DNA from: Octopus vulgaris
Lineage: Eukaryota
DNA: 64,000 bases
Assembly: GCA_951406725.2 (NCBI GenBank)
Contig: OX597823.1
Coordinates: 39,370,001-39,434,000 of the forward strand
Direction of reading: 5' to 3'
Part shown: positions 14,750-38,480 of the stretch, in pieces
Layout: every line of letters begins with the position of its first letter
How positions within the stretch are numbered: position 1 is the stretch's first letter
Position numbers and translations under genes: made by a program
Notes under the pieces: generated by a model
Told to the model about the DNA's origin: nothing
What the model saw: only the letters and a program-made list of their open reading frames with translations
Databases searched by the model: none

Positions 14750-15230
14750 TTCTTCAGTCTGTTGTACAGTCCAGACGCATTCCTAGCTGTCTCCTCTCCT
14801 ATCTTTTCTCTTATTGAAGAATCTTCTTCCAGCGTTCGTTACCTTACCTCGTCTGAGCTTAACGGCCCTCCCTGTCTGCATTCGTTTCGTTTGATTTGTT
14901 GTATGTCCTGTTTTTGTTACCAACTTTGACCCCCCGCGAATTCCAGATTTTATTTTGGTTGGCGGGAGCAACTGCCTTCAAAGTCTTATCTTATCGTTCA
15001 TTGCTTGAAATAAGGAGTAGAAGGACAGCCGACAACTAATGAAGGGTCCTTTTTTTTATGTCCCTTGTCTTTTATGTTACTTTCATGTTACTTGTCTCTC
15101 GTTCTTTGCGTACTCAACGTTATTTTCGTATTTCATGTCGTTTACGTTTTGTGACGTTCTGTACACATGTATGCATACCTATATACATACATATGTCTGT
15201 ATGTAAATATGTGTGTGTATATATGCATAT
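14750..15230 (+). mobile_element. Non-coding interspersed repeat (Penelope-like terminal repeat) carrying a permuted hammerhead
   Basis: Homologous by eye to 15490-15735(-), 16000-16275(+), 22795-22988(-) and 38280-38480(+). Confidence 0.6.
14985..15046 (+). ncRNA. Non-circularly permuted hammerhead-like motif, degenerate (G5 to A)
   Basis: CTTAT-C-TTATCG..CTT-GAAA-TAAG..CGACAA-CTAATGA-AGGG. Confidence 0.6.
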
Positions 15231-15288
15231 ATATATTATTTATATTTTTAATTGATTGAACGCCATGCATCCATTTCCAAGTAAGTTT

Positions 15289-15320
<32 letters not shown>

Positions 15321-15414
15321 CAAAAATTTAGATTCAGATGAATTAGGTACTTAAGTTGAGGCACCAGAATTTATTACTGTATTATCCATACAGTTTCAAA
15401 ATAAGGTGATTATT

Positions 15415-15456
<42 letters not shown>

Positions 15457-15489
15457 ATATAAATATATGCATATATACATATATGTACA

Positions 15490-15735
15490 TACCTACATAT
15501 ATATGAATATATGCATGCATATAATGGTACAGGACATCAAAAAATGTAGACACAGTGGGAAAACGAAAACATAAAAACAAAAAACATAGAAAACGAACTT
15601 TTTTCGAACAACGAATAAAGAAAGACAAACAAACAGAGAAACGAGACATGCAATATAGAGAACATTCCTTTTCATCAGTTGTCCCTGTTTCATCTACTAC
15701 GCGTGTCGAAGGTAAGGACAATATGTGACTTCAAA
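15490..15735 (-). mobile_element. Same repeat family, with a decayed permuted hammerhead at 15667-15727
   Basis: Minus strand CACAT-A-TTGTCCT-TAC-CTTC-GACA-CGCG..GGGACAA-CTGATGA-AAAGG. Confidence 0.65.
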
Positions 15736-15889
15736 CAAGGAATCAAGCAAGGAAACGGACTTTTTTTTAAACAACGAAAAAACAGAGTACAGGACAAACA
15801 ATACAAGGAAAATTCCCCTTCATCAGCTGTCCCTGGTTCGCACCGTCCAGGCAAAAATTGTCTGTTTCCTGTCCTGTTTCTTTATTGTA

Positions 15890-15997
15890 CTGTTTTTTCT
15901 TCATTTTATTGTACTGTTTTTTCTTCATTTGTATTGTTTTTTCTTCATTTGTATTGTTTTTTCTTCATTTACATTGTTTTTTCTTCATTTGTATTGC
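15890..15997 (+). repeat. 20-bp minisatellite (TTTTTTCTTCATTTGTATTG), about 5 units; mirrored at ~16598-16708
   Basis: Direct reading. Confidence 0.9.
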
Positions 15998-16082
15998 TTT
16001 TACGTCCTGTTTTTGTCACTTGTTTTACCCCCTCTGCAAAAGAATTTTATTTAATTCCTTTTGCAGGAAGGACTGCTTCGAC

Positions 16083-16144
16083 TGTGTTCTGTCCTTACCT
16101 TCGAAACACACTTTGAGTCGAACCAGGGACAGCTGATGAAGGGG
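16083..16144 (+). ncRNA. Non-circularly permuted hammerhead ribozyme candidate, intact core
   Basis: TGTGT-T-CTGTCCT-TAC-CTTC-GAAA-CACA-15nt-GGGACAG-CTGATGA-A-GGGG. Confidence 0.72.
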
Positions 16145-16450
16145 AATTTTCCTTGTATTGTTTGTCCTGTACTCTGTTTTTTCGTTGTTTAAAAAAGTCC
16201 GTTTCCTTGTTTGATTTTATGTTCTCGTCTCTCGTTGTGTTCTACGTTTATTTGTGGTATATATGTATGCATGTACATATATGTATGTATATGTACATAC
16301 TTACATCTACATGTATATATACATGCATACATATATACCACAAATAAACGTAGAACACAACGAGAGACGAGAACATAAAATCAAACAAGGAAACGGACTT
16401 TTTTAAACAACGAAAAAACAGAGTACAGGACAAACAATACAAGGAAAATT

Positions 16451-16512
16451 CCCCTTCATCAGCTGTCCCTGGTTCGACTCAAAGTGTGTTTCGAAGGCAA
16501 GGACAGAACACA
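16451..16512 (-). ncRNA. Second intact copy of the permuted hammerhead candidate
   Basis: Reverse complement of 16083-16144 with one linker change (TAC to TGC). Confidence 0.72.
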
Positions 16513-17028
16513 GTCGAAGCAATCCTTCCTGCAAAAGGAATTAAATAAAATTCTTTTGCAGAGGGGTAAAACAAGTGACAAAAACAGGACGTAAAAGCAA
16601 TACAAATGAAGAAAAAACAATGTAAATGAAGAAAAAACAATACAAATGAAGAAAAAAACAATACAAATGAAGAAAAACAGTACAATAAAATGAAGAAAAA
16701 ACAGTACAATAAAGAAACAGGACAGGAAACAGACAATTTTTGCCTGGACGGTGCGAACCAGGGACAGCTGATGAAGGGGAATTTTCCTTGTATTGTTTGT
16801 CCTGTACTCTGTTTTTTCGTTGTTTAAAAAAGTCCGTTTCCTTGTTTGATTTTATGTTCTCGTCTCTCGTTGTGTTCTACGTTTATTTGTGGTATATATG
16901 TATGCATGTATATATACATGTAGATGTAAGTATGTACATATATGTATGTATATATGCACATATTTTATTTATTTATTATATTACTATATGACCGAACGCA
17001 CGCGTTATTTCTCTATTTCTCTTCTCCA

Positions 17029-17097
<69 letters not shown>

Positions 17098-17582
17098 ATA
17101 TATGTATGTTTGTATTTATGTTATGTATGTATGTATATGTATATATATCTATATCTTATATATTTATTATTTACATCCTTATAAAAAGCAAACTTTGTAC
17201 CTTGACCGCTCATGTCACTAAATAAAATTGATAATATTTCAAGATTTTCGTGCTATTCGTAATGCTTTTTACAAAGTGAAAAAAAATACTCCGCCTATCA
17301 CTCAACCCACCTCTAGTTTTCCCTATGTTTATACATAACATCTATTCCTTTGAAGTCACCTCCTGATTTCTGCTATCTCGCTGTCTCTCACTATCTAGCC
17401 CCTCTCTCGCTCTCCTTCTCGTTGTATATGTGTGTGTGTGTGTCTCTCTCTCAATACCTTTACCTCTTTTTCTCTCTAGAGAAAAAACACGAGTGACAGA
17501 GAGAGAGAGAGTAGGGGGGGTCTACGGAGAAAAAACGAGACGCCGGACCGCTGCTTTTTTTCTGTCTATATGTCCCTCTCTA

Positions 17583-17999
17583 GGCGGCGAGCTGGCAGAA
17601 ACGTTAGCGCTCCGGACGAAATACTTAGCGAGCGGTATTTCGTCTGCGTTACGTTGTGAGTTCAAATTCCGCCGAGGTGGACTTTGCCTTTCATCCTTTC
17701 GGGGTCGATAAATTAAGTACCAGTTACGCACTGGGGTCGATGTAATCGACTTAATACCTATGTCTGTCCTTGTTTGTCCCCTCTATGTTTAGCCCCTTGT
17801 GGGTAATAAAGAAATAGGTATTTCGTCTGTCGTTACGTTCTGAGTTCAAATTCCGCCGGGGTCGACTTTGCCTTTCATCCTCTCGGGGTCGATAAATAAA
17901 GTACCAGTTTCCCACTGGGTCGATATAATCGACTTAATCCCTTTGTCTGTCCTTGTTTGTCCCTTCTATGTTTAGCCCCTTGTGGGCAATAAAGAAATA
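17583..17999 (+). mobile_element. tRNA-derived SINE family C (Meta/MESC-type central domain), with a tandemly duplicated body
   Basis: GGCGGCGAGCTGGCAG head, GAGTTCAAATTCC B box, GCCTTTCATCCTTTCGGGGTCGATAAA domain; body repeated from ~17818. Confidence 0.9.
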
Positions 18000-18602
18000 T
18001 GTATATATGTCCCTCTCTATGTTTCTATATCTCTCACTATCTTCCTCTCGCTTTCTTTCTCTCTCTCTCTCTCACTCTCTATATGTCTCTCTCTCTCTCT
18101 CTCACTACCTGTACCTCTTTTTCTCTCTGGAGATAAAATACATGAGACAGAAATGGAGTTAGGGAGAAAAAGCAAGTGAGACGGAGGATAAGTACAGTTT
18201 AGATATTTATATAAATAAATTTGGTTTTTTCGGGACTGACAAGTGTCAGTCCATTTCACTCGCTCGGTATACACTCCTTCTCCTCCTTTATGAGACTGAC
18301 AATGTCAGTCTGCTTTAGCCACTCGGTACACCCCCTCCCTCCTTCCTCGACGTTACCGTTCCGATGATAAAAAATAAATAAATGAAAAGTATGACGCTGA
18401 TTATGTATGTGTGTGCGTGTGCTTGTGTGCGTGCGTACGTGCGTGTAACTGTACGAAACTGTGTGTGTTTGTGTGTGCGCGCACGCACGTACTTGTGTGT
18501 GACTATTTGTGCATCTCCGCTAAACCGAAAATAACCGAAGTATTAATTTATAAATTGTGAGCATGTATATGTTTCTATTAAACATTTATGTACGTTTGTA
18601 TA

Positions 18603-18642
<40 letters not shown>

Positions 18643-18659
18643 AATATATATATACATAC

Positions 18660-21150
18660 ACAAACATACCTCAGCTTAAGTCGTTCTCGATTATACGTCG
18701 GTTTTCAAAAATAATTTATGGAAAAATAAAAATCGTGTTTGGCCATTTTACTCACTTTACGTCTGTCTGCCACAAATATTGGAATCGTAAAATCACTAGA
18801 AAGCCATTAAAAGCACATAAAAATCACATTACTGTACAATAAATAAGAATAAAAGCATGTAAAGTCATATCAAAATACATACAGTAAATGTTAAGATGCA
18901 TACCATGACATAATGTAGCTTAGTGAATGAAATCATGAAATCAACTGTGTTGTCATATTTATCAGTCTTTCAGAGCTCATATTACACTGTAGTTCCAAAA
19001 TCTACCGTTAGGCATCGTTGTCACTTGTGATTCTCGCGATTGTTTTGAATTCCGGCTACTTTCTCATACTCATTCATTTGTGACTTTATTTTTTGCCCCC
19101 GTGACTCCTAAGAAAATTCATAGTGAAAGTACTAAGCGTCATGCTATAAAGCTGGAAAATAAACTGCCTATGATAAAACGCCATGAAAAAGGTGAAAAAG
19201 TGGTTGCAATTGCACGATCTTTTGAGATGAGTCGGACAACTGCATCGACTATTGAACATAATAAGGACAAGATTTTAACACATATCAAATCTGAAGCCCC
19301 AGGGATGAAGAACACTGTCATCAATAAGAAAAGAGGTAAAATCTTTGAAGAACTGGAAAGTCTTCTTTCTCTTTGGTTTAGTCAAGAAATCATTCAGGTG
19401 AAAACGTTGTCTTTGAGGATCTAAAGAAAAAATATCCAGATAAGAAAGATGTAGAGTTCAAGGCAAGTGAAGGATGATCCCTGAAACTTAAAGCGCGAAA
19501 AAGTTATCAGTCCATTAAGAAGCAAGGTGAAAGTGCATCAGCTGATGAACAAGCAGTAGCGGAATTTCCTAATGCATTAAAGAAAACAATCAAAAGAAAC
19601 GGTTTTCTTCCAGAACAGATTTTTAATGTAGACGAAACTGGATTGTTTTGGAAAAAGTTGCCAGACCACGCATTGATTTCCAAGAAGGAGAAAAACTATT
19701 CCAGACTACAAAGTCTTAAAAGAACATCACCATTATGTTGGGAGGTAATTTGCTGGAGATTTTAAGTGCTTCATGCACACAACCCCCGTGCCCTGAAGAA
19801 CACAGCTAAGTCATCTCTCCCTGTTATATGGATGACTCATTCAAAAGCATGGGTTACTGTTGTTGTTTTTGAAGATTGGTTCTTCAATCATTTTATCCCA
19901 GCCGCAGAGAAGTACTGTAAGAAGAAGGGGATTCCTTTTAAGGTTATACTTATCTTAAATAATGCTCCTGGCCATCCGCATAACATCGTAGATTTTGACC
20001 CCAACGTTACCGTCGTATACCTCCCTCCGAACACCACGTCTCTTCTGCAGCCAATGGATCAGGAAATAATTGCTATCTTCAAGCGTTACTGTATGAAGCG
20101 TACGCTGCGGCAAACAATAGCTGCAATTGATCTTGATGAGTCCATCACACTTCGTAACTTTTGGAAGAGATACAAGGCTGTACAGAACATAGCAGCGACA
20201 TGGAATGATGTACAGCGCACGGCTATGAATAGTGTATGGAAGAAGCTATGTCTGCAATTCGTGAACCAATTTAAGGGGTTTGATAATGTTGCCACCAACA
20301 AAACGTTGGTGACTACGAACACAGAACTGGAAATGGATTTGGATTGGAGGAGGAGAATTTCCCAGATTTATTTGAAAAAGACAGGCAGCCCCTGACGAAC
20401 GAAGGCTTGATAGAGCTTCATGAGCAGCAAAACAAAGAAGAGGAAGTCGAACCTGAGCCACATCACTTTAACACTAAGAAAATGCAGCAAGCATTTGCAT
20501 ATATCGAAAAAGGTCTTTCAATGTTTGGGGATATGGATCCAAATACTCAGCGCTTTTCCAAGATTATGGGGGCTTGTTATGAAGCTTTTGCTCCTTATAA
20601 TGTAATCCTCGAGGAAAAGAAGACAGTTCAAGGAACTCGCAACCGGTTTTTTTAAGCCCATCGAACAAGAACAGTTAGAGTCAGCTGTTGATGGTGACGA
20701 TCCACGGCCATCTACATCCGCCATATAAACCACCAAATTCTATGTACGTGTTGGTAAATTTAAAATAATTAATTTTTTAATTACTATTGCAAAATAATAA
20801 TAATGACTGAATTTGTATTTTAAGCTAAAAAAGGTTTTTATTTTACCATATCTTATTGCGAACTGTATTTATAAATAAAGCGTCTGCGATGTACGCCAAA
20901 TTGTATTCGTAAATTAGATTATATTTTTTTACTGTACTGTCTTAAAAACTAAAAATTATTTGTTTGTAAGCTTAAAATAGGTTTTTATTAACCATGTATT
21001 ATTGAAAATGCATTCATAAATAAAGTGCAGAACTGGGAATAGTTATTATCGGTTTAACTTAGGGACAAGTATATTCGGCCTAGCCTAGAGATAAGTTAAT
21101 TCGACTTACGTCGTGTCTCCTGGAACCAATTAACGACGTAGGGTATATAC
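18660..21150 (+). mobile_element. Tigger/pogo-family DNA transposon, near full length, decayed
   Basis: Transposase remnants plus degenerate ends with CGAC(T)TACGTCG motifs at ~18670-18700 and ~21100-21147. Confidence 0.85.
19101..20730 (+). pseudogene. Tigger/pogo transposase (psq HTH, CENP-B HTH, DDE_1), frameshifted
   Basis: RHAIKLENK..AIARSFEMSRTTASTI; IFNVDETGLFWKK; LILNNAPGHP; VYLPPNTTSLLQPMDQ; several stops and frameshifts. Confidence 0.92.
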
Positions 21151-21194
21151 ATATATGTATGTATGAATACATACATACATACATATATATATAT

Positions 21195-21224
<30 letters not shown>

Positions 21225-21230
<6 letters not shown>

Positions 21231-21739
21231 TAGTAATGCAATACTAGAGTATTGCTTTCCAGTAAAGAATAGCCCGTGAGGGAAAAATATACAAAGAAGT
21301 AAATATATGGCACAACGAAGTACCGATATTTACTGGAAATAGCGAACGTAATAATACGACGCTAATGTATAGCTTCACCGCGTATGTACTAGCAAAAATG
21401 CGTGTGTGCAACAAACTAGAAAAAATTGTCTTACCTCCAGGGAGAACATCTGAAAGATGAAATACCTGGAAAAGGATAATGTGGGACATGCGCAGGTTTC
21501 AGATTTTTCAAGATATGTCTGCACCCATAAACTTGATCTATCTTCATCAGCCAAACATATACCACGACAACATTTCAGATGTTACCACATTAATGCCATT
21601 ACAATCGACTGAAACGCCGAAACGCTAACAGTACGAGAACGGTGAAGAAGTTTCAATAAATTAGTAATGCAATACTAGAGTATTGCTTTCCAGTAAAGAA
21701 TAGCCCGCGAGGGAAAAATATACAAAGAAGTAAATATAT
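21225..21739 (-). mobile_element. Retrozyme-like or non-autonomous Penelope-like element: 431-bp monomer plus 84-bp terminal redundancy
   Basis: 21225-21308 repeated at 21656-21739 (1 mismatch); flanked by (TA)n; contains a hammerhead. Confidence 0.7.
21479..21558 (-). ncRNA. Type I hammerhead ribozyme, intact core, GUC site
   Basis: Minus strand ATGTTTGG-CTGATGA-AGAT..TCAAG..CTTGA..ATCT-GAAAC-CTGCGCAT-GTC-CCACAT. Confidence 0.82.
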
Positions 21740-21756
21740 ATATATGTAAATATGTA

Positions 21757-21828
<72 letters not shown>

Positions 21829-22380
21829 TGTATGTATGTATGTATGTATATATCCGTGGCACTCCGTCGGTTACGATGACGAGGGTTCCAGTTGACCCGA
21901 TCGACGGAACAGCCTGCTCGTGAATATGCCCATACACACATTATTGCATGCCCATATGCACATCTCTACACACACAAAAACGCATATACATATACGTGTA
22001 TAAGCATATATATGTTTAATTATACACACACACATACGTATGTATGAGTACGTAACTTCATCCTCACATAGATGTATGCCTACACTTATATTTTTTTCAT
22101 TTTCTTCCTTTTTCAATCGTGTGATTGTATACGCGTGTGAGTATATGTATATATAAGTATATATTAAATGTGTATGTATGTACATGTGTGTATATGTGTA
22201 CACGTGTATATATATATATATATTATATGAGTGTAAAACTGTATCCAGTACATAAGGGCGGCTGTCATGCACATGTCTCCTTCCTCTATACGTATAGGTA
22301 TATACATACGCTTGTATATCTGTGGTTGTAAGTGTGTTGATTGATAGGAGGGTGTATATGTATATATATATATATATATA

Positions 22381-22792
22381 GGCGCAGGAGTGGCTGTGTG
22401 GTAAGTAGCTTGCTAACCAACCACATGTTTCCGGGTTCAGTCCCACAGCGTGGCATCTTGGGCAAGTGTCTTCTGCTATAGACCCGGGCCGACCAATGCC
22501 TTGTGAGTGGATTTGGTAGACGGAAACTGAAAGAAGCCTGTCGTATATATGTATATATATATGTATGTGTGTGTGTGTTTGTGTGTCTGTGTTTCTCCCC
22601 CTAGCATTGCTTGACAACCGATGCTGGTGTGTTTACGTCCCCCGTCACTTAGCGGTTCGGCAAAAGAGACCGATAGAATAAGTACTGGACTTACAAAGAA
22701 TAATCCCGGGGTCGGTTTGCTCGAGTAAAAGGCGGTACTCCAGCATGGCCGCAGTTAAATGACTGAAACAAGTAAAAGAGTAAAAGAGAGTA
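22381..22792 (+). mobile_element. SINE family A, full length
   Basis: GGCGCAGGAGTGGCTGTGTGG head, GGGTTCAGTCCC B box, (GTAAAAGA)n tail. Confidence 0.93.
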
Positions 22793-22794
22793 AG

Positions 22795-22988
22795 CATTAA
22801 TATATGGGCACGGGACGTCAAAAAAGCCTGGACATCATGAAAAATGAGAACATGAAAAACAAAAACATGGAAAACGAACTTTTTTTGAATAACGAAAGAA
22901 ACAAATAGAGAAACGAGACAAGTAACATAAAGAACAATCCCTTCACCAGTTGTCCCCTGTTTTATCTACTCCGCATTTCGAACGTTAT
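22795..22988 (-). mobile_element. 5'-truncated copy of the permuted-hammerhead repeat family
   Basis: Minus strand TTC-GAAA-TGCGG..GGGGACAA-CTGGTGA-AGGG; cleavage-site strand missing. Confidence 0.65.
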
Positions 22989-23095
22989 ATATATATGTCT
23001 GTGTGAGTGTATACGTATGTAATTTTTACGAACGCAGAATACTTCTATCTATTGTGAGAATGTAATTGCGTGTTTTGTTTATTTTTTATATTTTA

Positions 23096-23491
23096 CTAGC
23101 AGTATCGCCCGGCGTTGCTCGGGTTTGTAAGGGAAATAACTATATAAGCATTTTTAGAGATGTAAAGTATAATAGCCATCTCAATATGGCTAACCACAAA
23201 GGGGGGTGTTACTGTAGCTTTTTACGTTCTGAGATTTAATAATACATTTTTAGAGAGTTACTTCCCTTATATAAACTGAGCGAAAATGCATTAAAAATGT
23301 GAAAAATTGATGGTAAATTTTTTTAAAAATCGTAGACTCATCGTAGACGCGCGCTAATACCCAGAAGGGCTCGATATGAATCACGACTATAAGATACCCG
23401 GTTTTGGTTAAACTGCACCGCAAAATGTGGGAGTAGTCAGGAATCTAAATCGTAGGAGACAGACACACAACTTGACTTTTATATATAAAGA
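23096..23491 (-). mobile_element. Non-autonomous Helitron, family 1
   Basis: Reverse complement of the TC...hairpin-CTAG element. Confidence 0.88.
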
Positions 23492-23559
23492 TATATTTTA
23501 TATATTTTCATGCCTTTTACAGTAACTTCCCTTTCATTCAACTTTTTTTTCCATAGCGT

Positions 23560-23790
23560 CTATCGTCAAAATGCTGCAGGATTGAATCGAAAGACGGATC
23601 CTTCAAGAAGGAGACCTGAGGGTAGACAAGAATGAAATGGTTGGATAATATCCATAGTCTCAGTTAGTCACGCTTGGGAATCCAGCGTAATGAAGGTTGC
23701 TTCTGCAAGGACCCTATGGAGGTGGCTGAGGATGCTACTCCAACGACACTGCCAGAAATAGTAGGCGAAGAAGATGGGTGGAAGAGATTT
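23560..23790 (+). mobile_element. RTE LINE 3' fragment
   Basis: RRPEGRQ..KWLDNIHSLS..RLGIQ; similar to 10030-10200. Confidence 0.65.
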
Positions 23791-23799
23791 TTTTATTTT

Positions 23800-24140
23800 T
23801 TATTTCTTTCATTAATTGGGCTACACTTATTCTGGGGCAGCACCTTGTGGGGTTTAATCGAATTGATCAGACCTAGTACTTATTTTGCAAACGTGGTATA
23901 TATTCTATCGGTCTCTTTTGCCGGGCACGTAAACTACCTCCAGTTGTCGAATGACCAGTACAAACACAAAACACACACACGTATAGATATGTTTATAATG
24001 GGCTTCCACCACTCACGAGGCATTGAACCTTTCGGCACAACAAATGAGGACGTTTGTTCAAGGTGCCACGCAGTGGGAATGAACGCGAAACAATTTGGTT
24101 GCAAAGTGGTGAGGTTCTGAACCACGCAAGCTTTCCTGCG
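23800..24140 (-). mobile_element. Old SINE family A copy
   Basis: CTAGTACT..ATTCTATCGGTCTCTTTTGCCG and AAGGTGCCACGCAGTGGGA blocks. Confidence 0.7.
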
Positions 24141-24189
24141 TGTGTATATATTCTTTTATCATTTTACAGAATAAAAGGATATGCACATA

Positions 24190-24510
24190 TCCACACTTAC
24201 ACACACATTCCTCCTCCTCTACCACTCTCCTGTCTTTGAAAGAAACACTCTCCTGTCTTTGAAAGAACTTTTCTTCACCCATTTCCTTCCGGTCATTCAA
24301 AATATGACCGCGTGTGTACCGTTGGCGATTTTTTTCCTCTGTCTTCCCTTCTCTGGATCTTTCCTTCTCCTATGTTTCCGACGAAGAGCTCCGCTCGAAA
24401 CGTTAAACCCTCCTTCTTTCCTTCTTTACTGAGCGTCCAATAATACTATATTTGTTCCACGTCCTCGCGTTGTTGTGTTTTTTGTGCTTTCTTGTTTGGA
24501 TTAATTTTAA
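24190..24510 (+). mobile_element. Penelope-like terminal repeat with a minimal hammerhead
   Basis: Homologous to 60830-61110(-), which lies 3' of a PLE RT/GIY-YIG fragment. Confidence 0.7.
24374..24408 (+). ncRNA. Minimal type I hammerhead variant (U4 to C)
   Basis: GTTT-CCGACGA-A-GAGC tcc GCTC-GAAA-CG-TT-AAAC; palindromic AACGTT stem III. Confidence 0.65.
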
Positions 24511-24521
24511 ATATATATAGA

Positions 24522-24552
<31 letters not shown>

Positions 24553-24986
24553 GAAGAGTAAAGACCCTTCGATCATGAATGACCATGGGATTGCGCCTAG
24601 AAAGTTACCCTCTGAGGTAAAAGTCCGGGCAATATTGTTTAAAGAAGACCAGCAGTCGCCCATCCAGCCCTCCACCTCCATGCCACCAGTGAAAGGCGCC
24701 CAAGCTCGCGCGCACCCCCCCCCCACAAGTATAGTGATTCTGGGTTGGCAAGTTCAGAAGAATATTCTTATAATCTGGGATAAAGTGACACCGAGATTTG
24801 AGCTATTTACGTTCTGAGCTTAAATCCTGGTGGAAAGCAACAGAGATTTTCCGATTAACCATGACGGGCTGGTTTTGAAAGTTCTAGTCTGCCATTGTCA
24901 AGGACCGACATAATATGAGTCGTCAAATATTACTTGTCTTTCTGTCCAAGAATTTCCATATATATATATGTGTGTGTGTGTATATA

Positions 24987-26002
24987 TCTATATATATAAA
25001 ACTGAGAATGTGTCTGTCTGTCTGTCTGTCTGTGTGTTTCCCTAAAACTTGAGAACTACACAACCAATTTCATTCTCAAATTTTACACATGCCTTACTTA
25101 GGGTCCGGGGAGTGTCATCGGCAAAAAAAATTTTGAACTTTTTGCCTAGGGCGAGCCCACAGCAATATCATATCTTCTCCACTACGATTCCCTAAAATTC
25201 GAGAACTACAGAACCAATTTCATTCAAATTTTACACATGCCTTACTTAGGGTCCATGTAGTTTCATGGGCAAAAAAAGTTCAAAAAAAGTAATAATTAAA
25301 ATCAAACTAAAGTATAATATAATCGTAACATAACAAAAGTAAAAATAGCAATTGGTATAAAATTGCATCAATGACTTGAACTTGAATAAATGGTTTCGCA
25401 TGAATGGGAATAAATTAAAAATAAAATTAGCGTGCAGAAATGGAATAGTCCAGATGGATAATAAAAAAATTAAATTAAAGAAAAGACTATTGTCTATAAA
25501 GTATACAATGTAGAGAAAACAAAAAAGATTTGAACACCTGGAGGAAAAGTGTCTTGGTGTGACTATGAAAGATATCTAACCAGAGGTGGTAAATTCGCCA
25601 CAATAGAAGCAAGGTTCGAGTCAACGGAGCGTGCAAGGGAGTACTCGACTCGAACTTGCAAAGTGGAGATATTTTAGTTTTACCTTTATATCTGGGACGT
25701 AGGACGTGTCGGATAAAAATTTAAAATGCCCCCCCCCCCGAAGCAGAAGTAGGCTGGATTGTAGCCACACTTCTATACAAGAGGGAGGACAAGATACAAT
25801 TGATCGAAATTGCAAGAGACGGGCTTACAATTCCAGTTTGTTATATATTTTGAGTATTGTTATCACTAGCGATATCAAGATATAACTTTGTATTTTGTAT
25901 TTTATGTGTAGATGTATATATATATAGATGTACATGTAATATGTACACATATATATATATGCACTAGCACTATGACCCGGCAACGACGGGTCATATTGCT
26001 AG
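24987..26002 (+). mobile_element. Non-autonomous Helitron, family 2 (internal ~65-bp duplication at 25040/25190)
   Basis: TCTATATATATAAAACTGAGAATG 5' end; ATGACCCG..CGGGTCAT hairpin then CTAG. Confidence 0.8.
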
Positions 26003-26054
26003 TGTGTGTGTGTATATATTTATATATATATCTTTCTATCTTTCTATCTCTCTA

Positions 26055-26103
<49 letters not shown>

Positions 26104-26105
<2 letters not shown>

Positions 26106-26330: not shown

Positions 26331-26331
26331 A

Positions 26332-28035: not shown

Positions 28036-28199
28036 TTTGGTATGTATGTATGTATGTATGTATGTATGTATGTATGTATGTTTGTATGTATGTATGCATG
28101 CATGCATGACTGCATATATACATGTGCGTATGTAAGTATGTATGCATGCATGTATGTACGTATGTATGTATGCATGCATATAGGTATGTGTATATATAT

Positions 28200-28510
28200 A
28201 TCTCTTATTATAAAAGGCAGATTTTATCTGCCTCCCTTTGGGAGTTATACAAATCTACAATATAGGATTTCTTCAATTACAATTTACCTAGCATTTTTGA
28301 GAGTACAATGCATCGCGTCATGCCAGGTCCAGTTTTTAAAATTTAAACTCCAATTAAGCAAAATTTACAGAAAACTCACATTCTGGTGTGTGTGTCAAAT
28401 GCTTTTCTTAGTCTGGTTTACACCACACGCAAACGCACACACACAGTGGGCAACGAATAAAATGAAAGTAAATAGACAGTGATTTGAGGAAGACTAAAGT
28501 GAAAGTATTC
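28200..28510 (+). mobile_element. Probable Helitron-like 5' fragment
   Basis: TCTCTTATTATAAAAGGCAGA start resembling the other Helitron 5' ends; no 3' end found. Confidence 0.4.
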
Positions 28511-28647
28511 TGTCTATGACGATGATAGATACATGAGTAAAATGTATGGGAAGCTAAGAGCTAAGAGTGAGTGAAAATGTTCTTGGAAGAGAGTAATTAG
28601 TAATAAAGTAAACATACACTCATACATACATACATACATACATACAT

Positions 28648-28680
<33 letters not shown>

Positions 28681-28959
28681 TACATACACACACACATACA
28701 TACACACATACATACATACATATACATACATACATACATACATATACATACATACATACACACACACACATACACACACACACAGTATTGAAGCTTGAGA
28801 ACAATCAGATACATTTGCAACACATCTGTTGAAAATATTATTGTTCACACACATACATATACATATATACATACAGACAGACAGACAGATAGACACACAC
28901 ACACATGATCCAGCATGGCCACAACCTCAAGGCTGAAACATATAAAAGAATAACAGAAT

Positions 28960-29325
28960 ATAAATGTGTGCAAAGTACAAGAAATATTTATGCAGTATAT
29001 GGGGATTGGACAATAAGCGTAAGGCAGTGTCAATGGTGGTTCCAGAAATCCCGAGCCATAAACTACAGCCTAGAAGACGAGCCTCATCCTGAAAGATCTG
29101 TAGAACTCGACAAGGACATCCTGAAAACCCTGGTGGAACAAAATATCATCGTAACTGTTGAGGAACTAGCAGAGAAACTTGGATTTGGTCATTCAACCAT
29201 TCATTGACACCTGTGTGCTATCGGAAAAGTTAGCAAATTGGGTCAATGGGTTCCTCACGAACTTTCCGAGTCTAATTGCATGCAGAGAGTGAATGTATGC
29301 TTTTCTTTGCTGTCATATCTCACCA
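28960..29325 (+). pseudogene. Mariner (Mos1/Hsmar-type) transposase N-terminal fragment
   Basis: RNIYAVYGD..QWWFQK..SLEDEPHPER..EELAEKLG..GQWVPHEL motif; ends next to a Helitron. Confidence 0.88.
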
Positions 29326-29342
29326 CTACTGCGCTATGTATA

Positions 29343-29967
29343 TCTATATATATAAAACTGTAGTTGTGTGAGTGTCTGTCCCCTTCGATTTAGATTCCTA
29401 ACTACTCCCACATTTTGCGGTACAGTTTAACCAAATTCGGGTAGCTTATAGTCGTGATTCATATCGAGCCCGTCTGAATATTAGCGCGCGTCTACGATGA
29501 GTCGACGATTTTAAAAATAATTTACCATCATTTTTTATTCCATTTTAATGCATAATTTTTCGTGTGTCGATGGCGGCGGAGTTGGCGTCCACGCTCACAC
29601 CTGCACCTGTGGGGAAGGGAGTGTAAGGAAATCAACGTCGTAATGCGTTGTCAAGGAGACCAGTGTTCTTTTAGAACAACGACTTCATGGCTTGAAGACA
29701 CCAAAACAGAAATGGCTAAGAAAGCGTCTACATGAGTCTACGATTTAAAAAAAAATTTACCATCGTTTTTTTTCCATTTTAATGCATTTTTTCGCTATTA
29801 TATAAGGGAAGTAACTCTCTAAAAATGTCTACGATGAGTCAACGATTTAAAAAAAATTTACCATCATATTTTTTCCATTTTTAATGCATTTTTTGGCTAT
29901 AACTCTCTAAAAATGCTTATATAGTTATTTCCCTTACAAACCCGAGCAACGCCGGGCGATACTGCTA

Positions 29968-29968
<1 letters not shown>
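29343..29968 (+). mobile_element. Non-autonomous Helitron, family 1, with three internal copies of a ~60-bp unit
   Basis: TC...CTAG ends; GTCTACGATGAGTC..ATTTACCATC unit at ~29490, 29726 and 29827. Confidence 0.88.
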
Positions 29969-30006
<38 letters not shown>

Positions 30007-30407
30007 TATATGTATGCATGCATGTATGGAAGTATGTATGTATGGATGAATATATGTATATATAATCCATACCTGTATATATTCATATATATATGTATAT
30101 ATGTATGTACATATGTATGTCTGTATAGATGCATGTATGAATGTATATACATGTATGTGTATGCGCATGCATGCATGTATATATGCATGTATGTATATAT
30201 GTATGTATCAATGTATGTATTATAAACGCATTTATGTATGTATGTATGCATGTATGTTATTATTTGGTTTTATTTCAAGATTTCTTGCCAATACAGAAAG
30301 AGCCGGTGTCTAACCTAGTGCATGTATGTGTGTATGTGCTTTATTTGGAGTCAGTGCACGTGCAGATTTGTATGTTTTGTTTTTTGTATGTATTCTCATG
30401 CATATAT

Positions 30408-30637
30408 ATTTCTTTACTGCCCACAAAGGGCTAAACATATAGGGGACAAACAAGGACAGACAAAAGGATTAAGTCGATTACATCGACCCCAGTGCGTAAC
30501 TGGTACTTTATTTATCGACCCCGAAAGGATGAAAGGCAAAGTCGACCTCGGCGGAATTTGAACTCAGAACGTAACGGCGGACGAAATACGGCTACGCATT
30601 TCGCCCGGGGTGCTAACGTTTCTGCCAGCTCACCGCC
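30408..30637 (-). mobile_element. SINE family C, full length
   Basis: Reverse complement of 17583-17817. Confidence 0.9.
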
Positions 30638-30719
30638 ATTCTCATGCATATAGTTCCTTGTTTAGACATGCGCCTGTATACTTAAATGATAAACTTCTTT
30701 AAAATTTTAGGGAATAAGT

Positions 30720-30945
30720 TCTAACTGTGACGTGGGTTCATCTGGTATTTCAGGCAAAAAATTATCTAAGTATTTTTGAAAATATCCACATCTATGCCTC
30801 GTAGCTGAGGCGTTTTGACGTCATATTGAAAAGATGTAGGCTCTTGAAAGCGAAGCTGTTTCAGGATTGGTTTCTTACTCTAGATGGGAAAGTTGGAAAT
30901 TTGGTACCATGCAGTGGCATCTAATTCAGGGTTTAGTATAGCTTT
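30720..30945 (-). mobile_element. CR1-clade LINE 3' fragment
   Basis: LRGIDVDIFK..LDNFLPEIPDEPT across a frameshift. Confidence 0.55.
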
Positions 30946-30958
30946 CTTCAGACCCGTA

Positions 30959-31302
30959 CACGGCTAGCCAACTTAGTATCTTTATTTTTATCTATGTGTC
31001 CGAAAGAAGACCGGGGATTTGCATACCGGCTTTCAAAACCGTTTTCGCATAACCCGACGTCATTTTTCTTCACAACTATGTTATCTTGGTGCCCTGATGT
31101 GACTTCGGCTTCATAAACAACTGAGTGTAGCAAACACGCCTGATCGAGTGGGCAAGCTTCAGAATTTCGACAGTTACAACTGAGTGTCGTCTCTTGGTTT
31201 GACTTGTGAAGGCAATTTTAAAAGCTGTTATGCACATTACCAGTCTTCTTTCCGAGACACTGATGAAAAAAAAAAATAGAGTCACTAAGTTGGCTAGCCA
31301 TG
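30959..31302. mobile_element. Tc1/mariner-type MITE
   Basis: ~30-bp TIRs CA(C/T)GGCTAGCCAACTTAGT.., TA on both sides. Confidence 0.75.
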
Positions 31303-31396
31303 TATGTGACCTGACGACCAACTGCAGCACACCACATACAATCAAGGAGAGAATCGTGGAAAAATTCTACGCTTTCTATAAATGAATCAAAGAGAC

Positions 31397-31680
31397 CAAC
31401 CGCCGCCGCTACCACCACCATCACCACCACCACCACCACCACCACCACCACCACCACCACCACCACCACCACCACCACCACCACCACCACCACCACCACC
31501 ACCACCACCAACGCCGCCGTCGCCGCCACCACCACCACCACCACCGCCACCACCACCACCACCACCACCACCACCACCACCACCACCACCACCACCACCA
31601 CCACCACCACCACCACCACCACCACCACCACCACCACCACCACCACCACCATCACCACCACCACCATCACCACCACCATT
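31397..31680. repeat. (CAC)n trinucleotide repeat
   Basis: Direct reading. Confidence 0.97.
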
Positions 31681-31863
31681 ACAATCAGCAGCTACGCCAG
31701 TAAAATCACGCCTGCAATTGTGCGAGCATGTGCATTTATTTTGGTAAGTACAACATTAAATACATTTTATAGTGTCACGCTGAGATTCGGATATTTATTG
31801 ACTCCGAGTGGCGTGAAAGCGTGAAAGCGTGAATGCATGAAAGTATGATAGAGATTTAATTGT

Positions 31864-31919
<56 letters not shown>

Positions 31920-32069
31920 GTCTGAGAACAAACAGGATAAATAGAACTCATGAGTACATACACTGAAATATTTATATTATTTTTAGAAATTACAAGGTGA
32001 CTCAAGAGTTGAGAGTTTCGTGTATGCCACTTTGACAGATGTCGATTAATAATAATAATAATAATAATC

Positions 32070-32237
32070 CATTCTATTTCAGGCACAAGACCTGGAATTT
32101 GTGTGGGGATGGGCTAGTCATTAACATTGACCCTAGTACCTGACTGGTACTCATTTTATCCACCCCGAAAGGATGAAAAGCTGTAGACCTCTGCAGAATT
32201 TGAACGTAAAGAACCAGAGGAAAATATCCTTAAGCAT
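32070..32237 (-). mobile_element. Old SINE family C copy
   Basis: CTGGTACTCATTTTATC..CCCCGAAAGGATGAAA block. Confidence 0.7.
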
Positions 32238-32272
32238 TTACACAAACACACAGACACACACACACACACATG

Positions 32273-32303
<31 letters not shown>

Positions 32304-32689
32304 TCACAAGCACACACACACCCGTCTCTATACAATAGTAGAAATTAACCACCCACCAAGAAACCAGTAACCCACTCACCCACATCTCACCTCGCACAAA
32401 TTAGCTAACCAACATGTACTTGGGCTATAATAACGGGCGCCTAAGTTTAGGCTGAGATTTCTCAAAATATAAACAATATAAAATTGCTTAAATGTATCAA
32501 TTTAATTTCGAAAACAAAGCAATCAAATGCGTAAGCTGTAACTTCTTTTCAACATTTTTGCAAATTAGTACCAATCTATTGTTTATAACAATTATAAATG
32601 AACAGAGCGGTTACTTAAGGTTCAAGTCCCAGCCATGTAAGATTTTAAATTTACCGAAGAAAAAAAAAACGGTTTGGAATGAATAATAA

Positions 32690-32900
32690 TTTGTACTAAA
32701 GGCACAAGGCCTGACATTTGAGGAGAGGGAGCTAATCGCTTACATCGACTCCAGTGTCTCACTGGTACTTAATTTATCGACTCCGAAAGGATGAAAGGCA
32801 GAGTCAACTTCGGCGGAATTTGAACTCAGAACATAAAGACAGACGATGTGCCGCTAAGTATTTCGCCCAGTGTGCTGACGATTCTGCCAGCTCGCCGCCT
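32690..32900 (-). mobile_element. SINE family C
   Basis: Meta-type domain and CTGCCAGCTCGCCGCC head. Confidence 0.88.
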
Positions 32901-32971
32901 TAAATTTTAGCATAAATTAGCAGAGATACCAGGCGTTGCTCGGGAATAAAATGGCATAGAATTTTTTTTTG

Positions 32972-33165
32972 CTTTACTTGTTACAGTCATGTGACTCCGG
33001 CCATGCTGGAGCATGCCTTTAGTCGAAGAATTAGACACCAAGGTTTCTTCTTTGTAAGACTAGTGCTTATTCGGTGTGTTTTGCCAAACGATTAATGTTA
33101 CAGAGACGAACACAGCAATATCAGTTGTGAAGTGATGGTGGGGGTACAAACACAGACACACAGAC
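32972..33165 (-). mobile_element. SINE family A 3' fragment
   Basis: CAGTCAT..GGCCATGCTGGAGC..TTTAGTCGA. Confidence 0.75.
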
Positions 33166-33192
33166 ACACACACACATACATACATACATACA

Positions 33193-33223
<31 letters not shown>

Positions 33224-33419
33224 GTATATATATATATATAGGGAGAGAGAGAGAGACATGTATATACACATGTATATGTGTGTGAATTATATACGAAAGA
33301 AGGTTTGAAAATGCAATTTAAAAGATGTTTATTTACTTTACCGGTTTCACTCTTTGGAAAAAGATTGTCAAAAGTAACATGTGGAAGTTTGGTTGCGTTA
33401 ATTATTGGTTGTTGCAAAT

Positions 33420-33783
33420 TGCTACATTACATATATATATATACAGTCTTTGGTAACAGGGACATGTTAAGGACATAAAAAAGTTCAACAAGTTCCTTAA
33501 AATATTGGGCACAAAAGATTACATAAAAAATCGTCCTCAAGGACATACTTAAGATAGTTTCCAGAAGGAATTGATATTGGTACTGTATCTGTATATTCAA
33601 ATATGCACAGAAAATTGGTTGAAACAGAGTACTATAATCCATATAAATATACAGTCTTTGGTGACAACAGTATGTTGAGAATATAAAATTATTTATGTAA
33701 TCTTTTGTATGGGTGTATATATGTATGCATGTATATATGTGTATATATTACATGTACATCTATATATATAATATATATACATG

Positions 33784-33823
<40 letters not shown>

Positions 33824-33830
33824 CATATAT

Positions 33831-33895
<65 letters not shown>

Positions 33896-33904
33896 CACAT
33901 ATAC

Positions 33905-33935
<31 letters not shown>

Positions 33936-34220
33936 TCCATATACATACAATAGAGAGTTGTTTTTATTTTCCCTTTTAACACGTAATACTGAAATAGTGG
34001 AGAAGATACGATATTGCTGTGGGCCCGCCCTAGGCAAGAAGTTAAACATATATTTGCCCATGACACTACATGGACCCTAAGTAAGGCATGTCTAAAATTT
34101 GAATGAAATTGGTTGTGTTCTCAAGTTTTAGGGATTCACACAGACAGACAGACAGACAGCTGGACAGACAGCCAGAGAGACAGACAGACAAACACACATT
34201 CTCAGTCTTATATATATAGG
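33420..34220 (-). mobile_element. Helitron family 2 (a Helitron-type 3' end also lies at 32917-32945)
   Basis: 34020-34220 is the reverse complement of the 24987 5' region. Confidence 0.7.
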
Positions 34221-34239
34221 GATTAGCATTAGCTAAGGA

Positions 34240-36243
34240 CTTGGAGGAAACAATGGAACCTGGCTCTACAGCTCAGGTGACGGCCAAGAGACTGGCGTTA
34301 AACCAGCATCTCGAAGCCCAACATATGGGTTGCATTGTTGGAGCCAGGATTCGTACATTGGTTGTTAAGAAATCAAGGCAACAGGATGGGCCCAAGTGGT
34401 GGAAACCCAACGTGGCAATGATGGCACAATTCCATCTTTGATGAACCAAAGAGATAAGTTGATAAACGAGCTAGAGGAGATGCGTGAGGTCTTTCAGGAG
34501 CACTTCGTCCAGCTTTTCGTGGTGGGGGAAGCGGACCGGACAGTAACAGGGACCTATCGGATTTCCTCGCTGGGCTGCCGCACCCCTCGGAGCTTGACGC
34601 GGAGTGTTGTGAAGGGCCGATCACACCTGAGGAGATAATTGAGGCTATGGCGCACCGCGACGCGGATAAGGCACCGGGACTGGATGGTCTACCCTATGAA
34701 CTGTATAAGAGTATGCCAGACTTGTTCGGGCACCTGCTGGCGAATGGCTACGCGAACTGGCAGCAGAATGGGTTCATTCCCAGATCTGTGCGCCGGGGAA
34801 CGGTGAAGCTTGTCAGAAAGGACCCGAACAAGGGGGGAATGCATTGATAATTTTCGGCCCATCACCCTGCTAAACACAAAGTTGAAAATTTTGACCAAAG
34901 TGTTCTCGAAAAGATTGGCGCGTGTCGCGAATGGCTTGATCGGGAAGGCACAGGCATGTGCCGTTTCCCGGTAGAGCCATTCAGGATAATCTCCATCTTC
35001 TACAGTACACTGTAGAAGGGTTTCATAATGATTCTTACAAGGGAGGGACAGTGGTCGATTTAAACCAATCAAAGGCTTTTGATAGGGTAGACCATCATTA
35101 CCTGGTGTCCGATCTAGCACAGTTCGGCCTGGGTATTAGCTTCCTCAGGTGGATCATTGAAATTTATAACAACATCGACCCGGTAGTTCGGGTGAACGGC
35201 TTTTTATCTAAGCCGCTCAGCTTCAAACGCTCGGTTCATCAAGGGTGTCCTCTCTCTCCGCTTTGCTGCGAAAATTGAGCCAGGGAGGCCGGAAGTGGCC
35301 AATGTGTTCATCGCATCGGTCATCACCTACCGCCTAACCGTCGTTCCCCTGATTCGTGGTTGAGCAAGCTGGAAAGACAGCTCTTCCGCTTCTTGTGAAA
35401 GGGTTCGAATACGCTTGTGAGACGCTCTATTTGCTGCCAACAACCGTTAAAAGGTGGGCTACGGATGCCTTGGCTGATGATGCGCAGGCACGCGCTGAGG
35501 TTGAGGCGTCTGTGGCTCCATCTGGATGGTGATCGGGTGTGGTCTCCGCTGGCGAAACAGTTGTTTCCCAAGTTCACTTGCTTCGGTGGACTGGAGATCT
35601 GGTTCTATCGTAGATCGAAGTTGGGTACATGGTGTACGGAGTGACGTAAGGCTCTCCGGATATTCCATCTCTCGGGCAACACTTACGGTTGTGGTTCTAC
35701 CACATTCTTCTATAGAGGGTTGGTAGAGGCGAAATGTGACGATAGCTTGGGGAAGCTCTAGGTCTCGACAATAATCAGCTGGCCAATGTGTTCCAACGTA
35801 CATTCGGGCTGAAGATACTGGATAAATTCCAGATGTCTTTGGCATGGAAATGTTACCGAGGTGCCTTACCTGTCCGGGACAAACTCGCAATCATGGTGGC
35901 CCTAACCCACCGACCTGTCCAAGATGTGGGCGAGTCATGGAAACCGTTCCGCATGCTATTGTTCAGTGTTTGTTGGTTTCAGATGTATAGATTTATGCCG
36001 AACAACTATTGCCTAGTACAGGAAGAGTACAGTTATCGACTGAGTCAATAGTAAAAATTGACCCACCGGATTTCCTATCGAAAGAAGGTAAGAATTACTT
36101 TCTCGTCGTAGTAGCAATTGCAAGAAAGGTGATTTGGAAGACGCGAATGAAAGGTTTAATAACAGGCATTTTTATCTCTGGCCCTGGGTTGGTGGATTTC
36201 TTCACCTTCCACCTAAGAAGGAAAATAGGGCTAGAAACGTAGC
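34240..36243 (+). mobile_element. Tx1/L1-clade LINE ORF2 fragment, decayed and internally deleted
   Basis: KAPGLDGLPYELYK; NFRPITLLN..KILTKV; NQSKAFDRVDH; SVHQGCPLSP; KGGLRMP; C-terminal CPRCG..ETVPHAIVQC knuckle. Confidence 0.92.
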
Positions 36244-36249
36244 TTCAGT

Positions 36250-36985
36250 CCAGTCAAGAGAGCAAAAATCGTGATATTCCAGCAGCAAAAAGTTTCCTTT
36301 TCGAACATCAGCAAACTACTAAAGTGCAGTAAAACGGCTTGCGTGCAAGCGTGTAAGTTATTTTCGGAGACTGGTCAATATAAAAATCGGCAAAGGACTG
36401 GCGCCCCAAGCAAAATGATGGCGCAGTTGGACCGTCGAATCCACCGACTTTCGGAAGGCAACTGAATGCTGACAGACGTTGACATTTGTTAACAATTGTC
36501 CAACGAGAATGGTATTATTTGTACACTATAAACCGTCCGCAACCGTTTGAGAGAATTTGGATTACATGGAAAAGGCCAATAATACCCGAAAAAGTCGACT
36601 CAAACGTCTTAATTTCGCAAAAAGCCATGCTCAATGGACAGCCGAAGATTGGTGCAGGGTCCTTTGGAGTGACGAGTCACGCTTCTGAATATTTGGATCA
36701 GATGGTAAAACATATGTCAGATGTCGACCAACCGAGGAATTCCATCCGAAATACGTGAAAAAGACGACGCAAGCGGGGGTGGGGGTGATGGTGTTGGCCC
36801 TCTAGTTAAGTTGATAGAAAGCTAAATAGTGTAGGTTTTCTGAATCTAATAAAGGATAATGTGCCATATTTGACTCAGCAAATGCCTCCGGGGGCTATTT
36901 ACCAGCAGGACAATAGTCCTGTGCACAAATCCAAAAATGTTATGGAATTATTTGATCACCATAATATTGACGTAATCGAATGGCC
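36250..36985 (+). pseudogene. Tc1-family transposase fragment
   Basis: ETGQYKNRQRTGAP; WTAEDWCRVLWSDESRF; IYQQDNSPVHKS..VIEWP. Confidence 0.9.
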
Positions 36986-37669
36986 TACCACACACACGCA
37001 CACCCGCACACATCCATATACATATATACACTCGCATGCACTGCATCCGCAAATATTTGCATATACATATATATACACTCATATATGTATTCATATGTAT
37101 AAAAAAAACCATATACACATATATCCACCCATGAATATATATATATACATATAAATATACATATACATATATATATATATACATATACACATGAACATAT
37201 GTCGACATATCCACATATACTTACGAAATTACAGATATATATGTCTACCCACAGCTTTGCATATATATACATTCATGCATAACCAAACAACCTTCCTGGA
37301 TTTTACCTGGAGAAAGGAACCCCGACAACCCGTTAAAACTTTTCTGACACAGCTGCAGGTATGGAATAATACTCTTAATTGCCTCTTTGAATTTGCTTTT
37401 ATATATTTTATATATTTCAGGTTTATATTTCTATATGCTTATCATCAGACTCTTAATATAAATATGTGGATATTCGAATTGATATGATACCCCATGTCTT
37501 ACATCTGAATTATGAATTTGCTTTTCTGAATACTTTAAGACAGATATCTGAAATTTTTCTCGGATAACAAATTTAGTAATCTAATTTAGTAGCAAATTTA
37601 GTAAGCTAATATACGGGCGAAACAACAGTTGTACTATATACTGAAGCTTTATCTCTATTAAAATTCTCG

Positions 37670-37717
<48 letters not shown>

Positions 37718-37883
37718 TATACATTCATAGATACAATTTCCATTCTAGTAGGTTTCAAGAATATAACACCTTAATATCTCATCTTTTCTCATATTTCATG
37801 CCTAAGACATGTATTCTCTATTCTGGGTTTTATATACCTCTTTCTACTAATACTGTATATTTATATCTATATATATAAATATA

Positions 37884-38256
37884 AGTAGCTTCCTTACGAA
37901 CCACATGGTTCCGGGTTCAGACCCACTGCGTGGCAGCTTGGGCAAGTGTCTTCTACTATAGCCTCGGGTCGACCAAAGCCTTGTGAGTAGATTGGGTAAA
38001 CGGATACTGAAAGAAGCCAGTCGTATGTATAAATATATATATGTGTGTGTGTGTTTGTGTGTGTGGTGTGTGTGTCAGTGTTTGTCCCCTCAATATCGCT
38101 TGATAAACCGATGCTGGTGTGTTTAACACGCTGTAACTTAGCGGTTCGGCAAAAGAGACGGATAGAATAAGTACTAGGCTTACATAGAATAAGTACTGGG
38201 GTCGATTTGCTCGACTAAAGGCGTTGCTCTAGCATGACTGAAACAAGTAAAATAAA
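37884..38256 (+). mobile_element. SINE family A (5' truncated)
   Basis: Matches 62300-62660. Confidence 0.88.
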
Positions 38257-38279
38257 AATCTCTAATTTATTTAAACCGA

Positions 38280-38480
38280 AACGGGAGCAACAGTTTGAGA
38301 CGAAGACGCATTTTGTCGAAATGCGGAGGGGATAAAAGAGCCGATAGCTGGAAAGCTTTTCTTAGGTTGCCTGTCTTGTTTCTTTCGTTGTTCGCAAAAC
38401 AAATTCGTATTCGATGTTTTCGTATTTCATGTTTTCGCTGCCTAAAACGCTGCTGCATATGTGTACGTGAGATTGTACAT
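38280..38480 (+). mobile_element. Degenerate copy of the permuted-hammerhead repeat family
   Basis: CGGGAGCAAC (cf. 14963); CGCAT-T-TTGTC-GAAA-TGCG..CGATAG-CTG-GA with internal deletions. Confidence 0.55.

Follow-up and report, generated by a model that had tools for sequence, protein, structure and literature searches.

A hammerhead-like RNA motif with a predicted four-way junction in repeats of Octopus vulgaris and in Naiad Penelope-like elements

We analyzed a stretch of 64,000 nucleotides from Octopus vulgaris (GenBank assembly GCA_951406725.2, contig OX597823.1, forward-strand positions 39,370,001 to 39,434,000; hereafter, the window), in which several repeat families carry a permuted, hammerhead-like RNA motif. 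Judged from sequence, these repeats most likely encode a self-cleaving hammerhead whose direct A9–G10.1 link is replaced by a predicted four-way junction, with the cut predicted after N17. The strands follow the order f' - P0 hairpin - II - b - III/N17/I - II'/GAAA/III' - b' - I'/CUGAnGA - f, which adds three helices to stems I–III: the closing helix f, the hairpin P0, and the bridging helix b.

The order of the blocks, with the cleavage site first, then GAAA, then CUGAnGA, is that of type SGC in Eckert 2023 (PMC10085705; statements on this and the other published sources refer to the parts of them considered here). A preliminary description of the window had proposed a permuted fold, and its block order stands, whereas the plain type-SGC fold fails at stem II, a point that the description left unaddressed. 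The partner of the strand before GAAA lies upstream of the cleavage block and not in the bases after CUGAnGA, and the two strands occur in the versions CCUUC/GAAGG, UGCUC/GAGCA, and CGUUC/GAACG, depending on the subfamily. The bases after CUGAnGA (f) pair with a 5' segment (f'), which is followed by the P0 hairpin running straight into the stem II strand, and helix b connects stem I with stem II at their far ends. At positions chosen by pairing, the gap is zero between f' and P0 in 24 of 28 families and between P0 and stem II in 25 of 28. All 28 families keep the hammerhead core sequences (CUGAnGA, GAAA, and NUH), with U16.1-A15.1 and a non-G N17; CUGAnGA, GAAA, and U16.1-A15.1 served as search anchors; N17 is U in 7, A in 9, C in 12, and never G, as had been claimed from the window copies. 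An upstream stem II that closes on GAAA is present in 27 of the 28. ViennaRNA, which does not model pseudoknots, recovered f and P0 in the window copies of families A and C and in locus L206, and did not recover them in a decayed Naiad copy (L133; z -0.96). A candidate kink-turn, with GA on both sides between b and stem III, is seen in 13 of the 28 families: 11 of the 12 genome families and 2 of the 16 others. Family J (L079:1966 on the plus strand, L096:2556 on the minus strand) shares the fold but not the sequence and has a long P0. The hepatitis delta virus, pistol, and twister folds were rejected, as their strand order and conserved words do not fit. The hammerhead families of Rfam gave no gathering-score match in 20 loci, including L001, L133, and L206, and none was among the best 150 of 415 Rfam matches to the window, which were microsatellite-driven microRNA and small nucleolar RNA matches only.

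The pairings were assessed by permutation over 12 genome families (family F, which is truncated, was dropped) and 16 of 19 metagenome loci (three near-duplicates were dropped). Because several strands are located by pairing, wrong partners were given the same pairing maximization as the right ones in each of 20,000 rounds. Stems III and I together scored 10.25, against 4.42 ± 0.39 when permuted, upstream stem II scored 5.52 against 3.65 ± 0.20, and helix f scored 4.68 against 3.45 ± 0.18, with 0 of 20,000 rounds reaching the observed value in each case. In contrast, a stem II placed directly after CUGAnGA was at chance (1.62 vs 1.59; 8,337 of 20,000). The outcome was the same on 16 families with a mean pairwise identity of 0.52 (shuffled baseline 0.47). 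The covariation of stems I and III that had been proposed from four families is thus borne out across the 28; the four cited families alone give a weak result (883 of 20,000), and since this lies near the floor of 1/24 for four items, the significance is owed to the wider family set. Selection on structure in the source elements, also part of the preliminary description, is supported by stems III and I outscoring all 20,000 permutations and by changes on both sides of the pairs. Chance pairing, or shared ancestry of related repeats, might explain the marginal result for the four families, as related subfamilies share changes. It is refuted, and in our view has next to no probability, because the outcome holds on 16 nearly unalignable families and because a fixed descriptor of the fold has zero matches in about 900 kb of control sequence.

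The family had been called very abundant, and the GAAA...CUGAUGA pattern indeed has 4,831 exact matches in the 2.8-Gb genome, whereas the reversed pattern has 10. Within the genome, we aligned 21 hand-picked, mostly full-length copies using MAFFT, without fitting to structure; the counts from this alignment are inflated by the relatedness of the sequences. In it, 89.6% of cells are paired and 21 of 32 pairs change on both sides, with a covariation score of 0.43, compared with 0.23 after shuffling and at most 0.13 with slid partners. Stems III and I are paired in 92 and 95% of cells, with double-sided change in 4 of 5 and 5 of 6 pairs, respectively. Helix b is paired in 80% of cells and changes on both sides in 4 of 6 pairs, though 5 of the 21 rows are one column out of register. 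The upstream partner of stem II occurs in three Watson-Crick versions that co-vary within the genome. Loci L141–L155, which represent a flanking repeat, were left out of the motif copies.

The 5' ends of genomic copies bear on cleavage. We took 93 copies, selected by their 3' part only from among the first 90 of 1,437 places listed, and mapped their 5' ends on the family consensi. Forty-six of the 93 reach at least 75 nt upstream of the predicted cut. Among the remaining 47, 27 have their 5' ends 0–19 nt after the predicted cut, where 8.3 were expected (p ~1e-9), with 2 at -25 to -6 and 4 at +20 to +38. When copies were instead anchored on GAAA, in a sample that partly overlaps the first, the count was 21 of 45, with 8.0 expected. 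This pile-up fits cut RNA that was copied with a few bases lost at integration and, as far as genomic ends can indicate, cleavage in vivo.

The same fold is found in Naiads. Craig et al. 2021 (PMC8557442) described Naiads as lacking a canonical hammerhead and flagged eight "half cores", including two cephalopod families, with no fold proposed in the parts considered; the "HHR_half_core" remark for Naiad_Ovul and Naiad_Esco places the second core half 35–50 nt away on either side. In the supplement of that paper, we inspected by eye 50 of the 62 places with CTGATGA, together with the first 10 for each of three variants. The junction fold appears at the 3' ends of Acropora records, of Naiad_Ovul, and of four more records of uncertain name, and nematode Naiad consensi look like type CSG. 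In the octopus genome, 312 exact matches were obtained with a pattern taken from the 3' end of the published Naiad_Ovul, and the Naiad_Ovul-like family found with it carries the fold, on the same strand and 3' of the reverse transcriptase (RT) in 13 of 30 and 7 of 20 RT loci. In the second set, of 20 divergent RT loci, this downstream motif is of N type, and one locus has C and J copies that were not placed as a 3' end.

RT remnants adjoining the Naiad_Ovul-like family led to full Naiad proteins and, through these, to 80 metagenome loci, 62 of which have 300 nt or more of sequence beyond the RT match on its 3' side. By eye, 19 of the 80 carry the six-helix fold, five carry type-CSG hammerheads 3' of the open reading frame (ORF; L233, L234, L235, L236, and L239), and one, L243, is an apparent true SGC. 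The fixed descriptor, which required helix b in every junction fold, recovered that fold in 17 of 80 loci and CSG in 2, all in sense orientation and downstream of the RT match. In 284 kb of antisense and 214 kb of coding and upstream sequence it matched none of these forms, and 407 kb of Markov-shuffled sequence yielded no junction form. The motif-bearing loci have the features of Naiads: DKA/S in 17 of 19, an N-terminal GIY-YIG pattern in 10 of 19, and a C-terminal RT. Protein P0024 matches Pfam GIY-YIG and RVT_1, both below the cut-off. Among viral contigs, 24 pattern matches included no Naiad relative.

Several side observations concern these elements. A ubiquitin C-terminal hydrolase domain (PF00443) occurs in a subgroup of Naiad relatives, at the C-terminus of P0083 (residues 977–1264), and similarly long ORFs, of ~1,300 aa, are present in several motif-bearing loci (L226, L246, L249, and L253). 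Twister-like words, judged by eye, lie near Naiad 3' ends in the record before Naiad-2_Movir of the Craig supplement and ~660 nt 3' of the RT match in L278, which suggests that some Naiads use another ribozyme class. A different 3'-end motif is common to the records before Naiad-2_Chem, Naiad_Ebur, and Naiad-1_Pfla in the Craig supplement, which come from distant animals, and is possibly another structured RNA; one regular expression for it matched 0 of 80 loci.

A number of observations weigh against an active junction hammerhead of Naiad type. The first concern the position of stem II. In the 21-copy alignment, 94% of cells are also paired when stem II is placed as in plain SGC, with one or two G-U pairs per helix; helix f is not significant within the genome alone (1,100 of 20,000); and a broken A9–G10.1 backbone is without precedent in the compared parts of the hammerhead papers. 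Family E is mismatched at the first pair of upstream stem II (1 of 28; in the 28-family pairing table, the family-E row is mis-registered and the first stem II pair is G-C by construction). The motif could be read as a plain type-SGC hammerhead, with stem II formed by the G-rich run that follows CUGAUGA(A) and the strand before GAAA, and with upstream helices that are incidental or an off-switch. Such pairing is formally possible in the short families of the genome, which on their own are compatible with it, and one Naiad locus, L243, looks truly SGC by eye. We nevertheless consider this improbable: in the short families only 1 of 4 pairs of the plain stem II changes on both sides while the upstream partner co-varies, and across the 28 families the plain stem II is at chance, scoring 0–1 in 14 of the 16 metagenome families.

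Equally improbable, in our assessment, is an arrangement that keeps the same pairings and self-cleavage and has helix f stack under A9–G12 as the working stem II. Helix f does begin directly after A9, and its first position is paired in 23 of 28 families. However, all four Watson-Crick types are seen at this first pair, and some mismatches too. Hammerheads are expected to have G10.1-C11.1, and in each of the 19 metagenome loci found by eye GAAA is preceded by C, as for that pair, while the base after CUGAnGA is variable. Moreover, helix b continues from the upstream helix, much like the I–II interaction of type SGC.

The other adverse points concern cleavage and mobilization. The 5'-end peak lies 5–19 nt past the predicted site and not at the site, an offset that RT stalling at the structure could also give. 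The motif is broken in all 13 family-B copies among those listed, which spread as passengers of another repeat, and none of these forms occurs in 26 Naiad loci that have 600 nt or more of 3' DNA; taken together, these indicate that the motif is dispensable for some lineages. Finally, tblastn found no RT or endonuclease ORF for window families A–I in 150 loci or in the window. A hammerhead-derived conserved RNA that no longer cuts and serves as a recognition or pause element for RT would account for the displaced peak and for the copies, about half of the 93, that extend well past the site. We regard it as unlikely, because the core words, U16.1-A15.1, and a non-G N17 are kept in every family (the anchors included) and 5' ends fall off sharply just upstream of the site.

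We therefore retain the self-cleaving hammerhead as the preferred reading of the motif. Its four-way junction would be composed of the core, helix f, hairpin P0, and stem II. Stem II (G10.1-C11.1) would stack under the core, helix b would connect stems I and II at their distal ends, an arrangement shared with type SGC, and a side arm would consist of f and P0. No autonomous partner of families A–I was present in 150 flanking loci or in 20 divergent RT loci. Since the 150 loci around short-family copies and the window contain no Naiad RT, the link of the window families to Naiads is one that we infer; given the absence of a nearby RT and the 765-nt non-coding unit of family A, these families are best read as non-autonomous, retrozyme-like partners. 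They are likely Penelope-like units mobilized by a Naiad RT. Tandem transcripts may be cleaved to unit-length RNAs, possibly circles. Copying of cut RNA would yield copies that start just after the cut, while copying of uncut or re-ligated (circular) RNA would yield copies that run through the site. More broadly, we think it fairly probable that Naiads across animal phyla carry an active hammerhead whose core is interrupted between A9 and G10.1, with a four-way junction rejoining the two parts; this would constitute a seventh permutation in addition to the six so far considered possible. On the same assessment, CSG and SGC forms occur as well, non-circular hammerheads would be common and ancient in the clade, and the junction form would have arisen by circular permutation of a CSG or SGC ancestor in tandem repeats.

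The window itself contains eight motif pieces, of families A (two intact copies and two fragments), C, D, F, and B (single copies), where six copies had been counted; only the two family-A copies are intact (Table 1). These are the arms of one inverted duplication and are 98% identical. The family-A unit, 765 nt and non-coding, is found as partial tandem copies, as inverted pairs, and in TA runs. In L018, two motifs are spaced 765 nt apart, and L008 and L009 run through most of one unit. The stem positions and sequences reported at 16083, 14985, 15727, and 38307 were all found where described, whereas the core positions said to persist are broken in three of these four copies (14985, 15727, and 38307). 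The majorities of the intact families are still mirrored in the stems of the damaged copies. The family-C copy at 14985 reads CUUAU / C / UUAUCG, with partners AUAAG and CGACAA, a changed G5, and U at 11.1. As a change of G5 abolished or strongly reduced hammerhead cleavage in Eckert 2023 (PMC10085705), this copy is predicted to be inactive. The family-D copy at 15727 (minus strand) reads CACAU / A / UUGUCC; its stem III had been explained as CpG decay of CGCGU, which is the majority sequence of 23 family-D copies. The family-B copy at 38307 reads CGCAU / U / UUGUCG. Its linker and its stem II 3' strand are missing, the final G of its "stem I" doubles as the G of GAAA, and its core reads CUGGAAAG.

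Table 1. Motif pieces in the window and their predicted elements.
Feature	Position	Strand	Details
Family-A motif, intact	16029..16144	+	f and P0 in minimum-energy fold, z -2.96; covariation
Family A, 5' elements	16029-16082		f' 16029-16033; P0 hairpin 16034-16066; stem II 5' strand 16067-16071; b 16074-16082
Family A, cleavage block	16083-16094		stem III UGUGU 16083-16087; N17 = U16088 (predicted cut 3' of U16088); stem I CUGUCC 16089-16094
Family A, G block	16098-16110		preceded by linker UUA; stem II 3' strand 16098-16102; GAA 16103-16105; stem III partner ACACA 16106-16110
Family A, 3' elements	16117-16144		b' 16117-16125; stem I partner GGACAG 16127-16132; CUGAUGA 16133-16139; f 16140-16144
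Family-A motif, second intact copy	16451..16566	-	inverted arm of the same insertion; predicted N17 at 16507
Family-A fragment	15802..15840	-	b', stem I partner, CUGAUGA, and f only
Family-A fragment	16754..16792	+	same extent as 15802..15840
Whole family-A insertion	15741..17014		truncated, tandem, and inverted pieces of the unit, adjoining TA-rich microsatellites
Family-C motif	14928..15048	+	core decayed to CUAAUGA; predicted inactive
Family C, elements	14928-14990		f' 14928-14933; P0 14934-14965; stem II 5' strand 14966-14970; stem III CUUAU 14985-14989; N17 C14990
Family-D motif	15655..15732	-	GAC replaces GAA; f', P0, and upstream stem II strand absent; predicted inactive
Family-F fragment	22925..22986	-	5' end ~6 nt 3' of predicted cut; core CUGGUGA
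Family-B piece	38256..38350	+	dead derivative of family Bp, fused 3' of another common repeat; stem II 3' strand deleted, core broken

The family-B piece lies in a composite repeat (window 38100-38480 and L031–L046) in which a common segment resembling a short interspersed nuclear element (SINE) is fused to the dead ribozyme fragment, with at least 16 copies at 86–95% identity. Elsewhere, the window contains a 209-aa open frame that by eye resembles a DDE transposase remnant (19766-20392, plus strand) and a SINE-like repeat in two 183-nt tandem copies (17634-18004).

Among the closest known systems is type SGC (HRIMA-1 and variants; also types CSG and GCS) of PMC10085705, which shares the S-G-C order with a full core, a short linker between stems I and II (often 3 nt, UUA), and a helix joining the far ends of these stems. 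Here, unlike in type SGC, the stem II 5' strand lies near the 5' end, behind a hairpin and with the closing helix f. Eckert 2023 described six hammerhead block orders and assumed CUGAnGA and its adjacent stem II strand to be inseparable; the motif is a putative type-SGC-like hammerhead outside these six orders, departing from strict SGC at block C. If true, the junction fold would overturn the assumption that the CUGAnGA–stem II block cannot be interrupted. The RNAs in that study came almost all from metatranscriptomes and metagenomes, with no genome of a known organism in the parts considered except one weak bacterial GCS candidate, whereas the motif here is chromosomal and present in thousands of copies. 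The fold would thus place non-circularly permuted ribozymes, so far environmental, in animal chromosomes at such copy numbers. No description of this fold was found in the hammerhead, Penelope-like, and Naiad literature covered, mostly the accessible parts of open-access papers.

The window families resemble the Naiads of PMC8557442 in their (TA)n insertion bias and partial tandem and inverted copies, and differ from them in having no ORF. The fold, if real, would explain the apparent absence of a canonical hammerhead in Naiads, which had been read as a hint that hammerheads are dispensable parasites of Penelope-like elements, and the pile-up of copy ends would then offer a genomic handle on the role of hammerheads in Penelope retrotransposition. 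Known retrozymes carry type I hammerheads and have shorter units. Family A, like retrozymes, consists of a non-coding tandem unit with one hammerhead each. In the parts considered of Li, Clavereau and Pollet (bioRxiv 10.64898/2026.07.22.740005), non-long-terminal-repeat retrozymes, for which rolling-circle mobilization was proposed, are not said to contain a permuted ribozyme, and the unit here is 765 nt; the two systems are alike in being non-autonomous, tandem, hammerhead-bearing Penelope-like derivatives.

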